A DNA stretch of 64,000 nt from assembly GCA_016124425.1 (NCBI GenBank), contig WGNT01000054.1:23-64022 (forward strand), given 5' to 3'. Made by a program: the position numbers and the translations under genes. Shown here in pieces: positions 6,055-11,807 of the stretch (position 1 is the stretch's first letter; every line of letters begins with the position of its first letter). Source of the stretch: Cytophagales bacterium (GTDB taxonomy: Bacteria; Bacteroidota; Bacteroidia; Cytophagales; Cyclobacteriaceae). The notes below the pieces were generated by a model. The model did not search any database, had not been told where the DNA came from, and saw nothing but the letters and a program-made list of their open reading frames with translations.

Positions 6055-7152
6055 TTATAATTGAATTTGGTTTGCTAGATTTGGCAAAATGACCTCAACG
6101 GAAGTACCGCTTCCCTGTTCAGATTTTAAGATTACTTTTCCATTCATCTGCTCAACCGATTCCTTTACCATGTACAAACCCAGTCCGGAGCCTACGTTTC
6201 GTTGGGTCGCACGGTGAAATAAGTTGAAAACATCCTTTTGGTGTTTCTCCTCAATACCGATTCCATTGTCCACTACACAGATTTCCGCTTGGTCTGGAGA
6301 GGTAGTAATGGATATTTTTATTTTTTTGGAACCAGATTCCTTTTGAAATTTATATGCGTTGCCTACTAGATTATTTAAGATTACACGGATTTTTGCTTCG
6401 TCGGAGTAGAATTCGAAAGGCTGTGTAATCTCGACGGAAAAGTCAACATCCTCCATATTCCACTTCTTTAAATATTCTGCCATCTGCTGGTCAAAAACCA
6501 GTTTAAAATCAATGGATTCAATTTTATTTTCAATCTTCGTCGATCGATAAAAATCAAGCATCTTGTAAATAAAGTCATCAAGCTTTAAGGTTGCCGAGTC
6601 TATCATTTCAAAGTATTCCAAAATCATGGGATCGGCCGTTTCCATTTTTGCGAGTTTTGAAATACCCGATATGCTCATCAGTGGTCCCCTAAGTTCGTGG
6701 GATAGGCTATATACAAACTGATTCATTTCCGAGTGCAACTTTTGCAGGCGGTCATTTTTGACCTTTAGTTCTTTGCGGGCATCGTAAATCTCAGCGGCGT
6801 TAAAGATTGCATTTTTAATCTGCTCTAGGTTCCACGGTTTGTCGATGAATCGGTACACTTCCCCTCTGTTGATTGCGTCAATGACACTAACGATGTCAGA
6901 ATAGCCGGTAAGCAAAATCCGAATCGGCTTTGGATTCACCACAACAAGCTTTTCGAAGAATTCCACTCCTGTCATGCCCGGCATTCGCTGATCTGCGATG
7001 ACCACTTCGAATTCCTCCTGCTGCGCCATCCTCAACCCTTCTTCGGCATCAAGTGCTGTATAAATCCTAAAATCCTTACGAAGGCTGGCTTTGAAAGAGC
7101 TTAGATTATTGTCTTCATCATCAATATATAGCACATTGATTTTTCGGATCAT
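6055..7152 (-). CDS. Hybrid receiver-histidine kinase (REC-HisKA-HATPase), cytoplasmic
   Basis: N-terminal REC (YIDDE, ADQRMP, KPW); H-box SHELRGPL, N-box NLVGNA, DNGIG, GSGLGL. Confidence 0.93.
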   Translation of the reverse strand: MIRKINVLYIDDEDNNLSSFKASLRKDFRIYTALDAEEGLRMAQQEEFEVVIADQRMPGMTGVEFFEKLVVVNPKPIRILLTGYSDIVSVIDAINRGEVYRFIDKPWNLEQIKNAIFNAAEIYDARKELKVKNDRLQKLHSEMNQFVYSLSHELRGPLMSISGISKLAKMETADPMILEYFEMIDSATLKLDDFIYKMLDFYRSTKIENKIESIDFKLVFDQQMAEYLKKWNMEDVDFSVEITQPFEFYSDEAKIRVILNNLVGNAYKFQKESGSKKIKISITTSPDQAEICVVDNGIGIEEKHQKDVFNLFHRATQRNVGSGLGLYMVKESVEQMNGKVILKSEQGSGTSVEVILPNLANQIQL

Positions 7153-7159
7153 CGCCTTT

Positions 7160-9292
7160 TTATTTTTGGTTTATAGGAAGCTTAATGATGAAACTTGTCC
7201 CTATGTTTAATTCAGATTCAACATTGATCGTACCCTTATGGTTTTCAATGATAGTATAAACAATTGACAATCCCAAACCGGTACCTTTTCCTACCGGCTT
7301 GGTGGTAAAAAATGGTTCAAAAATCTTATCCCTCACATGTTCCGGCATCCCTGGGCCATTATCGGTAATCTGTATGACGATATAGTTGCCTTCTTGGGAT
7401 GTTTTGAGGAATAGTTCTGGGGATCGCCCTTCTATCGGGTGGTCAAGAAGGGCATGAACAGCATTACTAATGATATTCATAAATACTTGGTTGATCTTTC
7501 CAGCAAGGCATTCAACCATGGGCAGGCTAGCATACTCTTTTCTCACGCCTATCCGGCCTCCCATAGAACTGTTTAACAGAACTAGTGTGCTGTCCAGTCC
7601 GTCATGAATGTCAACTTCTTTGACATCTTGCTCATCTATTCTGGAAAAAAGCTTTAATCCGCGTACAATTTCAACGGTTCTTTTTGCACCGTCCTCCATC
7701 CCGGAAAGGAGCTGATTCACCTCTTCAAGCAGGTAATCCAGTTCTAGATCGTCTTCGAAATCACTTAGCTCAGATTTGCTTTCCGCGGAAAACTCCAGTT
7801 TGCCTTTTTCCCTATATAGCTCCATCAGTTCAAGAATATCCCTGATGTCACGTTTCAAAGGAGATATGTTTGAACTTACAAAATTAATAGGGTTGTTGAT
7901 TTCATGGGCTATCCCAGCTGTTAGCTGACCCAAGGAAGCCATTTTTTCTTGATTTACAAGCTGTGTTTGAGTATCCTTTAGATTTTTCAGTGTGAGTTCA
8001 AGTTCTTTCATTCTGGAAGTCACCATCTCTTCTAGGTAGAAGTTTTGTTCCTTAATAAGCCGTTCGTTTTCCTTCAGCGCTTCTACTTTATCATGCTGTT
8101 CTTTTTCCTTTTCTTTCTTCAGAATATTGATCTTGTCAGCAAGCGCAAAGGATAGCAAAAGGGCTTCAATTGCTGTACCGGCCAGTAAGGGCAAGTTAGC
8201 ATAGGCTCCAAGATCGAGAATACCCTGATTGTTAAGGATAAATACGACCAGCCCAAACAACAAAAAGCTCCAGGCAAACAAAAAGAAATAGGCAGAACGA
8301 TACCCCTCTTTTGCCACTTTAACCGCTATAAAAATAAAGGCCACCGCTAGCACCAAGCCATTAACATCAACAATCGAGTAGCTTTGGGAAACGAACCCCA
8401 ACAATCGTAAAACCAACGCAACAACATAAACCAATACCAACAGATACAGGTACTTTTCATACTTGGGAACGTATTCCGAGGTTTTGAGAAAAAGCCGGAA
8501 GAACGGTATAACGAAAATACTTGATAAAGTAGTAAACCCAATAATACTCACTTCATAAATAAAGGGATTTTGCCCAAGGAAAGGGTACGAATATCCCGAT
8601 AAAGAGAGTTGTGCAAATGCAATAAACAAGATATAGAAACAGTAATAGAGGTAAACTTCGTCCTTTATTGAGAAAAACAAAATAAGGTTGTATAAAAACA
8701 ACGCAACCATAATCCCAAAGTAGGCACTAATAATGACAAGCCGGCGGGTAAAATTATCGAAAAAAGTACTTTGGGGCGAGACGGTAATATCAAATTCGAT
8801 TGGGACTTTCGAGTTGATTTTAAAAATGAGGTCGTTCGTATAGCCACCGAAATCTTGAATTTTAAAGTAAGGATTTGGGTTTTTCAGGTTATCAGAACGC
8901 TGAAACTCAGTCCCGGCAGTGTCGACAGAAACCATATCACCTTCCGGAGTGACTCTAAAAAATTCTACCATCCGAAAGGTAGGGCTATTAACTTCGACAT
9001 ATAGCGGGCCTTCCTGCCCCTCATCACTATACTGGTCCAGACTTACCCTCACATACAATGGTTCCTTTTGGACCCCTATATTGATCTTTTCTGCCGCTGT
9101 TGAAATAAACAATCCTTCATCAAATCTCCCTTCTTCCAGTCTCTCGGTACCGACGTAATAGTCGTAGGTAGAAAATTTAAACCCTTCGTACCCTCCAAAA
9201 ACTCCCAAATAGTAAAATAATGGAACAATAAGCAAAAGAATTAAAAGTAACGTTAAAACGGTATTTTTAATATTCATGTAATCTTTTTTCAT
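7160..9292 (-). CDS. 7TM-DISM sensor histidine kinase (7TMR-DISMED2-like extracellular domain, 7TM, HisKA/HATPase)
   Basis: N-terminal TM, about 150 aa periplasmic domain, 7TM with G..(A)LFLYNL.LF...D..YLYY..Y and [13 protein letters not shown]-box [24 protein letters not shown]. Confidence 0.92.
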
Positions 9293-11089: not shown

Positions 11090-11342
11090 GCGATTGCGAG
11101 TAATACGGGTGATCTCAGTAGTAAAGTTATATTTTTGTCTCCATAAAATCGGGACAATTCAGAAAATATATTCTTTTTTTTTTACAAATTCAGTTTTTAT
11201 AGTGATTTTTAAATTAAACTTCGGAAGTTAAGGCTGACAGTTTTCTTCATTACGAAATATAAAAAATTGAATTAACAGATAAACATTGATTTTTTCACCT
11301 TTTGAACTTTATAATTTAAATGCTTATAACGATATTTATCGC

Positions 11343-11807
11343 ATGGAGAGAGACAAGATTAGGGTGCTGTACGTAGATGATGAGGTTAATAACCTCCAAG
11401 CCTTCAAGGCGACCTTTAGGAGAGACTACAAGATCTTTTTGGCCGAATCGGCTAAAGATGGACGAGAGCTGCTGCTAAATGAGGAAATCGACATCATCAT
11501 TACAGATCAACGTATGCCAGAAGAGAATGGCGTAGATTTTCTAAAATCAATAATTCCTTTGCACCCCGAGCCTATGCGCATTTTGCTTACGGGGTACACG
11601 GATGTGCAGGCAGTAATAGACGCCATCAATAAGGGAAAAGTGTATCATTACCTTACAAAGCCGTGGGAAGAAGATTATCTTCGGACAGTGGTCAAAAATG
11701 CGTTTGAGGTATTGTCACTACGAAAGGAAAATAAACAACTTACGGAAAGTCTCATTAAAGCCAATGATCAGCTGGAATTCCTACTTCGTCAAAATCTTTT
11801 ATCGTAG
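11343..11807 (+). CDS. Stand-alone response regulator (REC plus short coiled-coil tail, no DNA-binding domain)
   Basis: YVDDE, TDQRMP, LLTGY.D and KPW motifs. ATG at 11343 chosen because the REC fold starts there. Confidence 0.92.
   Translation: MERDKIRVLYVDDEVNNLQAFKATFRRDYKIFLAESAKDGRELLLNEEIDIIITDQRMPEENGVDFLKSIIPLHPEPMRILLTGYTDVQAVIDAINKGKVYHYLTKPWEEDYLRTVVKNAFEVLSLRKENKQLTESLIKANDQLEFLLRQNLLS

Follow-up and report, generated by a model that had tools for sequence, protein, structure and literature searches.

A candidate signalling cassette of Bacteroidota in which a predicted N-acyl amino acid synthase gene is exchanged jointly with the sensor half of the adjacent 7TM-DISM kinase

The described systems closest to the locus reported here make oxazolones from N-acyl amino acids. 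In the TrzA/TrzS pair (Rv1356c/Rv1355c) of mycolic-acid actinobacteria, tryptophan is acylated, cyclized with ATP and desaturated with O2, and the saturated ring accumulates when the oxidase is disabled (pathway passages of PMC12856293). The same passages call the role of oxazolones unresolved and a major open question, and note both their likeness to signals and the neighbouring genes for cyclic dimeric guanosine monophosphate (c-di-GMP) turnover; a signalling role had also been suggested earlier in print (passages of PMC12856293 and of bioRxiv 10.1101/2020.06.11.147165). For TyzA of a similar pathway, the closest folds are given as FeeM and BjaI (structural passage of PMC10404671). Here we describe a five-gene cassette in a 64,000-nucleotide stretch of contig WGNT01000054.1 (hereafter the window) from a Cyclobacteriaceae member near Lunatibacter (94% identity over its 233-residue protein), which encodes a predicted N-acyl amino acid synthase, a ThiF-type cyclase, a membrane sensor kinase, a receiver-kinase hybrid and a lone receiver.

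In this study, we show that the synthase gene and the sensor half of the kinase are exchanged as a unit among related bacteria. We consider it probable, with considerable room for doubt, that the cassette enzymes produce a derivative of an N-acyl amino acid, in this locus likely an oxazolone with a saturated ring, and that the cassette's kinase detects this product as a signal passed between cells and specific to the strain. An initial sequence-only reading of the window had pointed to such a circuit partly by way of the mycobacterial background, of which the c-di-GMP neighbourhood holds; the Rv1355c/Rv1356c pair is by now characterized as TrzS/TrzA, and the signalling idea was already printed (passages of PMC12856293).

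Exchange of the synthase and the sensor half

Among Cyclobacteriaceae the cassette occupies one chromosomal slot, between alanine dehydrogenase and pyrophosphatase, and 56 distinct syntenic loci were compared, 48 with a short ThiF gene and 8 with a ThiF-oxidase fusion. Nine duplicate loci and those with cut or split genes were left out, among them L023, with ThiF in two pieces, and L110, with the kinase in two pieces, which are broken alleles or assembly errors. Trees were built for 39 loci, with 17 near-identical type I loci omitted. In those of ThiF, the acyltransferase, the periplasmic domain and the seven-helix domain, the 8 alleles that bear an oxidase fall together on one side (support 99, 100, 95 and 100, respectively), but they need 4, 5, 3, 4 and 4 changes on the trees of the kinase domain, receiver, hybrid, alanine dehydrogenase and PorX. 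The approximately unbiased test rejects a clade of oxidase alleles for the kinase domain (p = 3.9e-7), the hybrid (8.5e-8) and PorX (6e-9), and it rejects the host clade, nine Algoriphagus-like loci named after the kinase tree was seen, for the acyltransferase (4e-4) and the seven-helix domain (1.6e-5). The contrast runs through a single gene: when careful trees were built for each half of the kinase, the allele group appeared in 98% of bootstrap trees for the sensor half versus 0% for the kinase half, and the host clade in 0% versus 100%.

Supported conflicts between trees (34 common leaves) tell the same story. The acyltransferase tree has none with the periplasmic and seven-helix trees (0 of 18), and 8, 6, 8, 9 and 7 of 18 with those of the kinase domain, the receiver domain (REC), the hybrid, alanine dehydrogenase and PorX; the acyltransferase, periplasmic and seven-helix trees show 3-11 with each host gene. 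The kinase domain conflicts with the receivers, hybrid, alanine dehydrogenase and PorX, which we treat as host genes, at 0-1 of 16 splits. Short-ThiF loci alone give the same pattern, and ThiF then tracks the host (0-1 of 13 conflicts with host genes). The sister pair L030/L125 illustrates the exchange, with protein identities of 97% for PorX, 98% for alanine dehydrogenase, 95% for the receiver, 94% for the kinase domain, 90% for the hybrid and 75% for ThiF, set against 55% for the acyltransferase, 55% for the seven-helix domain and 24% for the periplasmic domain. DNA identity of the pair falls from 67-92% to 43-67% over L125:7800-9850, a drop that starts ~85 codons before ThiF ends and continues through the final helix, and protein identity recovers at kinase residues ~360-400. 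Mapped from this pair onto the window, the exchangeable block would run from the end of the ThiF gene through the entire gene for the acyltransferase to the sensor-coding half of the kinase gene, with approximate limits at 8150..10240 (minus strand). The alleles compared are those of different species and genera.

Such a block might arise as a by-product of recombination between conserved flanks if the kinase sensed something else and controlled or merely accompanied lipid synthesis. Both breakpoints do lie in conserved sequence. Moreover, 7TM-DISM sensors occur in 36 more of 401 Bacteroidota genomes without the enzyme, and the best fold match of the periplasmic domain (sensor model with a predicted local distance difference test score, pLDDT, of 92.7) is that of RetS, RetS/LadS-type sensors having a carbohydrate-binding-like fold. 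Equally fast-evolving neighbours are not exchanged, however: TsaE (54% mean identity) and the porin (58%) track the host, with 1-3 of 14 and 0 of 11 conflicts. Within type I, ThiF is usually left behind, so that the moving unit is synthase plus sensor; none of the 401 genomes searched was found to have this sensor subfamily but no synthase, and the linkage survives changes in gene order. We regard this explanation as improbable.

The synthase is tracked more tightly by the seven-helix domain than by the periplasmic domain (Spearman 0.90 vs 0.80), so that a test of binding to the periplasmic domain alone, as had been suggested for this kinase, could miss the site. Four membrane positions differ by allele (Y220, R296, D309 and G312), which is only a lead, the groups having been defined from the same trees. 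Joint exchange and the closer tie to the membrane domain would also be explained if the acyltransferase, or a product that stays in the cell, regulated the kinase of its own cell with no message between cells, by direct contact, by acylating the kinase, or by reporting the supply of acyl-CoA, amino acid, ATP or oxygen; the enrichment of tryptazolones in cell pellets (passage of PMC12856293) fits as well. Yet such private sensing gives no clear reason why sister taxa should repeatedly replace the block with alleles of 40-55% identity, it leaves unexplained why one slot should house five different tailoring enzymes, and it sits less easily with a periplasmic domain that belongs to the exchanged block. 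Fused or longer acyltransferases were absent among 7994 scored candidates, a weak test. We judge private sensing unlikely, though the most serious of the rivals to a signal passed between cells.

Cassette proteins and the proposed pathway

The claim that four minus-strand genes are tightly coupled beside a divergent fifth proved exact in every position, overlap and gap when the open reading frames (ORFs) of the window were checked: ThiF and the 233-residue protein overlap by 17 bp, the latter and the kinase by 4 bp (ATGA), and the kinase and hybrid genes are 7 bp apart. The arrangement is not a product of chance, because it is conserved across Bacteroidota amid unrelated flanking genes.

The 233-residue protein (9289..9990, minus strand) has no Pfam match, and its resemblance to acyltransferases, first suspected from sequence, is borne out by its modelled fold. 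It is a predicted N-acyl amino acid synthase of the FeeM/LuxI branch of the GNAT fold and the cassette's constant enzyme. The model is confident (pLDDT 90.7) and ranks FeeM (2g0b) first, with Z 16.6 and a root-mean-square deviation (rmsd) of 2.8 over 178 residues, ahead of LasI (14.9) and BjaI (14.4). In Foldseek the top rows are TofI, FeeM and BjaI; FeeM and BjaI are likewise the fold neighbours given for TyzA (structural passage of PMC10404671). A broad-profile hhalign comparison found a remote match to a Rhodococcus protein adjoining an Rv1355c-family gene (E 1.7e-4, probability 49, 178 columns). Single-sequence hhalign comparisons based on a narrow alignment fell short of significance (E 0.02 and 0.19), and a PDB sequence search with acyltransferase profiles gave just a weak GNAT match (1vhs, E 0.003).

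With TofI, LasI, BjaI, RpaI and EsaI among the top fold matches, the protein could be thought a divergent LuxI-like homoserine lactone synthase, with a membrane kinase detecting its product after the manner of LuxM/LuxN. We find this very hard to credit, since FeeM comes first by Z (16.6 against LasI's 14.9), none of 29 family members matches the Pfam autoinducer synthase profile at E<=1, and the nearest named Atlas clusters are GNAT/FeeM (0.92-0.96). A lactone, furthermore, calls for no partner that tailors a carboxylate, whereas such a partner is present in 151 of 154 loci. An N-acyl amino acid remains the product that we favour, and the view that the circuit is unrelated to LuxR agrees with the lack of any linked LuxR-type receptor, the cassette regulators being kinase and receiver proteins only.

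The ThiF protein (9974..11089, minus strand; 371 residues) is an E1-like adenylating domain (Pfam ThiF, E 4.9e-14) that had been assigned to the Rv1355c/TrzS (MoeY) type, and rightly so. It scores 445.5 bits against the NCBIfam Rv1355c family NF005901 (below the cut-off of 476) over profile positions 8-343 of 722, is 40-41% identical to Rv1355c-family proteins of actinobacterial plasmids, and shares with them G135, S137, D159, R170, K182, D229, D254 and D259, invariant in 9 of 9 aligned rows and including the nucleotide-binding residues. Since the match covers only the N-terminal half of the profile, the protein lacks the C-terminal flavin-dependent oxidase, and the oxidase domain of a relative found no tblastn match at E 1e-4 in the host genome (88.6% complete). 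The idea of an oxazolone-type module is thus upheld as to the cyclase family but has to be given up for the known desaturated oxazolones, which would not be made with no oxidase domain in the protein and none found in the genome.

The membrane kinase (7160..9292, minus strand; 710 residues) has the 7TM-DISM architecture, with a periplasmic 7TMR-DISMED2 domain, a seven-helix 7TMR-DISM_7TM domain, HisKA (26.5 bits vs a cut-off of 26.9) and HATPase. Its motifs are intact (AHEI in the H-box, NQVFMN, DNGPG and GTGLGL), as are the phospho-acceptors H463 in the kinase, D54 and H152 in the hybrid and D55 in the receiver. Only the kinase domain resembles LuxQ-type models, and Wntless and TMEM87A, found as fold matches of the whole sensor, were too weak to retain (template-modelling score ~0.3, rmsd ~15).

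The soluble hybrid (6055..7152, minus strand; 365 residues) combines REC, HisKA and HATPase domains. It is present at 65 of 74 genome loci, with four true absences and five contig ends; L044, L045, L050 and L052 (Indibacter, Mongoliibacter and Arthrospiribacter) lack it and keep the other four genes. The lone receiver (11343..11807, plus strand; 154 residues, REC) likely starts at ATG 11343, a choice that matches the 154-157 residues of most close orthologues. It is 44% identical to the hybrid's N-terminus (receiver plus coiled coil), a paralogue that ends just before the phospho-histidine. Its tail, QLEFLLRQxLLS (window 11772-11807, plus strand), is kept in 135 of 136 such receivers and occurs nowhere else in the host genome; this conserved C-terminal helix is the likely output or docking element. 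The tail persists, too, at L105:10412-10903, in a receiver that has diverged beyond recognition by Pfam. In loci outside Cyclobacteriaceae the hybrid is often followed by one more receiver, the third, which is CheY-like and has a single domain (L092:13226-13636, L096, L102, L105-L107 and many metagenome loci).

Taken together, these features suggest the following pathway. Firstly, the 233-residue protein, to go by its fold and homology, would join a fatty acyl group from acyl-CoA or acyl-ACP to an amino acid, probably an aromatic one. Secondly, ThiF would adenylate the carboxylate and close the ring, which without an oxidase should stay saturated, by analogy with the intermediate of oxidase-dead TrzS. 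Relatives may cap or remove the same carboxylate otherwise, by forming a desaturated oxazolone, by methylation or by oxidative decarboxylation, and tailoring of this kind would yield a neutral, membrane-entering molecule and diversify the product. Thirdly, the product may bind the co-inherited sensor, most likely in the seven-helix domain, and switch the kinase between kinase and phosphatase activity. Phosphate could then pass, in whichever direction, between the kinase (H463), the hybrid (D54, H152) and the stand-alone receiver (D55). Finally, the observed exchange of blocks would yield signal "dialects", because, as we propose, the synthase must match the sensor while the kinase domain must match the receivers of the host.

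The surroundings of the cassette are housekeeping genes: pyrophosphatase, porin and ValS on one side, and alanine dehydrogenase, TsaE and PorX on the other. Upstream of ThiF, at 11121..11129 (minus strand), a TAACTTTAC element lies 32-40 bp from the start codon and is conserved among Cyclobacteriaceae in an alignment of 20 intergenic regions. This candidate element is one base off the -7 promoter element of Bacteroidota (TAnnTTTG), which it resembles. Sigma-70 and terminator scans gave counts below those of shuffled DNA (11 vs 15.3 and 3 vs 5.2). Elsewhere in the window, a GH3-family gene (acyl-amino acid ligase fold; 42809-44359, minus strand), 32 kb off, may encode a further N-acyl amino acid enzyme, positions 30981-41075 hold a SusC/SusD pair and two FG-GAP/ASPIC-UnbV repeat proteins, and two ORFs of 934 residues (59886-62690, plus strand) and 227 residues (583-1266, plus strand) have no Pfam match at E 1e-8.

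Linkage across Bacteroidota and the second enzyme

A survey of gene neighbourhoods bore out the expectation that enzyme and sensor genes occur together. In all 74 genome loci of a sample biased to close kin, the acyltransferase is flanked by ThiF and a 7TM-DISM kinase. In an even sample of 401 Bacteroidota genomes the acyltransferase is present in 17, and in the 16 other than the host all 16 have the kinase within 3.5 kb, amid flanks that are unrelated outside the family. The reverse search agrees, its 17 best sensor matches (E<=4.4e-115; next 1.6e-100) being the 17 acyltransferase genomes, with a sensor profile built from 12 of them and 5 not in the profile; all 13 Rv1355c-family matches also fall in these 17. 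Among 64 evaluable loci from the best 80 of 508 metagenome matches, 61 have the kinase, two of the misses ending inside ThiF at contig ends. In the family sample, 30 of 151 genomes match the acyltransferase, and 17 of the 20 fetched from the 29 others have the kinase. The linkage persists though gene order varies between loci.

Other layouts were also seen. At the three remaining loci of the 20 fetched (L114:8006-12321, L115:3663-8699 and L116:5334-10202), a divergent acyltransferase subfamily, a vanillyl-alcohol-oxidase-family flavoprotein and a soluble multi-PAS histidine kinase make up a second synthase-plus-sensor arrangement. L173:6649-11069 has two tandem 7TM-DISM kinases of 735 residues after one synthase pair, possibly with a second receptor for another dialect, and L209:4975-7223 has a truncated receiver-kinase upstream of the acyltransferase and a small MarR-looking ORF downstream (by eye; no Pfam match at 1e-8).

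The further argument that linkage of the same enzyme pair to different signalling genes in two phyla speaks for a signal turned out to be weak, a GGDEF neighbour being present in one of four annotated actinobacterial plasmid loci opened. That plasmid locus (L128:2851-6944, Rhodococcus) has a GGDEF gene, an acyltransferase-like gene and a divergent Rv1355c-family gene; a Streptomyces plasmid (L129:3824-6721) has a short ThiF with GNAT and MerR, and a Kitasatospora plasmid (L130:4221-9207) has ThiF with ketosynthase III and a LuxR-type regulator.

Nor is ThiF the fixed partner it had been taken for: the acyltransferase is the constant enzyme, and ThiF is replaced in relatives. Among 154 loci with complete acyltransferase and kinase, the partner is ThiF alone in 87, a ThiF-oxidase in 51, a class I S-adenosylmethionine methyltransferase in 8, a vanillyl-alcohol-oxidase-family flavoprotein in 3, an ICMT-family methyltransferase in 2, and none or unassigned in 3; four sampled genomes with no linked ThiF have none elsewhere at E 1e-40. 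We infer that all these partners neutralize the same carboxylate, though the methyltransferases could act elsewhere. The partner type changes 10 times on the seven-helix tree, 11 on the periplasmic, 13 on the acyltransferase, 17 on the hybrid and 18 on the kinase tree, against ~24.5 when shuffled. Whether the whole set amounts to a phylum-wide quorum-sensing or kin-recognition language of free-living Bacteroidota, with N-acyl amino acid derivatives (oxazolones, methyl esters, enamides), a 7TM-DISM receptor subfamily, interchangeable tailoring and agr-like dialects, seems to us evenly balanced.

Chemistry of this kind also invites the thought of a weapon with a self-sensor, in which the cassette would make an antagonistic lipid whose detection by the kinase turns on protection or production. 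Saturated oxazolones act as acylating agents, N-acyl amino acids may have antibiotic action, and both stieleriacines (passage of PMC12856293) and N-acyl alanine methyl esters (passage of PMC11580390) are reported to be antimicrobial; antagonism, too, drives allele diversity. Nevertheless, the loci inspected share no conserved exporter, hydrolase or immunity-like gene within the cassette, the cassette is kept vertically at one housekeeping slot in most Cyclobacteriaceae examined, and no viral copies were found. Such a weapon appears to us rather improbable, and we continue to favour a signal exchanged between cells.

Weighing a signalling role against known systems

Several observations weigh against that signal. 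The known oxazolones are mostly cell-retained and labile, and no phenotype followed when they were added to five producers (passages of PMC12856293 and bioRxiv 2020.06.11.147165), and TyzA with TyzB but no oxidase gave no detectable cyclized product in one host (passage of PMC12856293). Of 29 family members a single one matches the Pfam FeeM profile (PF21926), below its cut-off (18.3 bits against 27; E 0.0021), and the window protein does not. One metagenome locus, L209, has the acyltransferase without a membrane kinase, and in L114-L116 an acyltransferase of 27-28% identity stands beside a flavin adenine dinucleotide oxidase and a PAS-domain kinase, not a 7TM-DISM kinase. Across the phylum (154 loci reduced to 77 at 80% identity) synthase and seven-helix domain match more loosely, 11 of 35 acyltransferase splits conflicting with the latter vs 25 of 35 with the kinase domain. 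No DNA-binding domain or transcription factor was found in the cassette proteins, so an autoinduction loop cannot be shown. RNA-labelled runs, available as contigs only, cover the locus evenly over all 30 bins including intergenic DNA (X1) or in 8 of 30 (X2 and X3), and contigs with such flat cover cannot show transcription or operon structure. Lastly, crossovers favour conserved flanks and diverged neighbours then travel together, so that block inheritance alone is no proof of a functional match; linkage, for its part, does not explain why the block, and not its neighbours, is replaced repeatedly.

Given the joint exchange of synthase and sensor half, the cassette is likely an undescribed chemical signalling system of water and soil Bacteroidota. 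The literature searched, which did not cover subscription journals, held no description of the cassette and nothing on 7TM-DISM kinase quorum sensing in Bacteroidetes, and the passages of a ThiF review (PMC12596934) give no Bacteroidota example. The cassette supplies a candidate oxazolone receptor and natural allele pairs, and cultured, harmless hosts exist (Algoriphagus, Belliella, Cyclobacterium, Litoribacter and Chitinophaga-like genomes). If the proposal is true, oxazolones would gain a function and a receptor for the first time, and so would the membrane domains of 7TM-DISM proteins a lipid ligand. A further signalling chemistry would be added to a phylum with a central part in the turnover of polysaccharides in soil and water, and the family of ligand-receptor pairs, diverse in their chemistry, could serve as orthogonal sensors.

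On the side of synthesis, the cassette is like TrzA/TrzS in having a FeeM/LuxI-fold acyltransferase next to an Rv1355c-family ThiF protein with signalling genes nearby, and many Bacteroidota relatives keep the ThiF-oxidase fusion. It differs in that the window copy lacks the oxidase and in having a 7TM-DISM kinase relay as its constant neighbour in place of c-di-GMP enzymes; for the Trz products no receptor is known (passages of PMC12856293). OxzA/OxzB and TyzA/TyzB/TyzC follow the same two-step logic, TyzB also being a stand-alone ThiF cyclase, but include a desaturase and belong to another ThiF subcluster (PMC12856293), and passages on these pathways make no mention of a kinase (bioRxiv 2020.06.11.147165; PMC10404671), nor do those of PMC12856293. 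FeeM/FeeG, HyeB and the producers of stieleriacine and of N-acyl alanine methyl esters likewise pair a synthase of N-acyl amino acids with a flavin oxidase or methyltransferase, but with no linked receptor in the passages reporting them (PMC11959600; PMC12479983; PMC11580390). Both kinds of partner also occur in relatives of the cassette, the Bacteroidota flavoproteins being placed at the level of the vanillyl-alcohol oxidase/p-cresol methylhydroxylase family.

On the side of reception, comparisons lead to signals of other kinds. In the Bacillus comQXP pherotypes, which use peptides, synthase and kinase sensor part vary as a block, and signal-blind or signal-mute mutants are common in agr. The specificity groups of Staphylococcus aureus agr show linkage across the variable agrBDC region, with agrA tracking the genome (passage of PMC8768832), much as here the synthase varies jointly with the sensing portion of a membrane kinase and the response side goes with the genome. 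However, agr has peptide signals, a DNA-binding regulator and no homology to the cassette, whose alleles are seen between species and genera. Vibrio LuxM/LuxN and CqsA/CqsS and Legionella LqsA/LqsS combine a synthase of a small lipid-like autoinducer with a polytopic membrane kinase and a phosphorelay, but with other synthase products and other sensor families. RetS and LadS of Pseudomonas share the 7TMR-DISMED2 and 7TM sensor architecture, but are not synthase-linked and act in the Gac network. The logic of a synthase with a membrane kinase and specificity groups is known; the chemistry, the receptor family and the phylum would be new.

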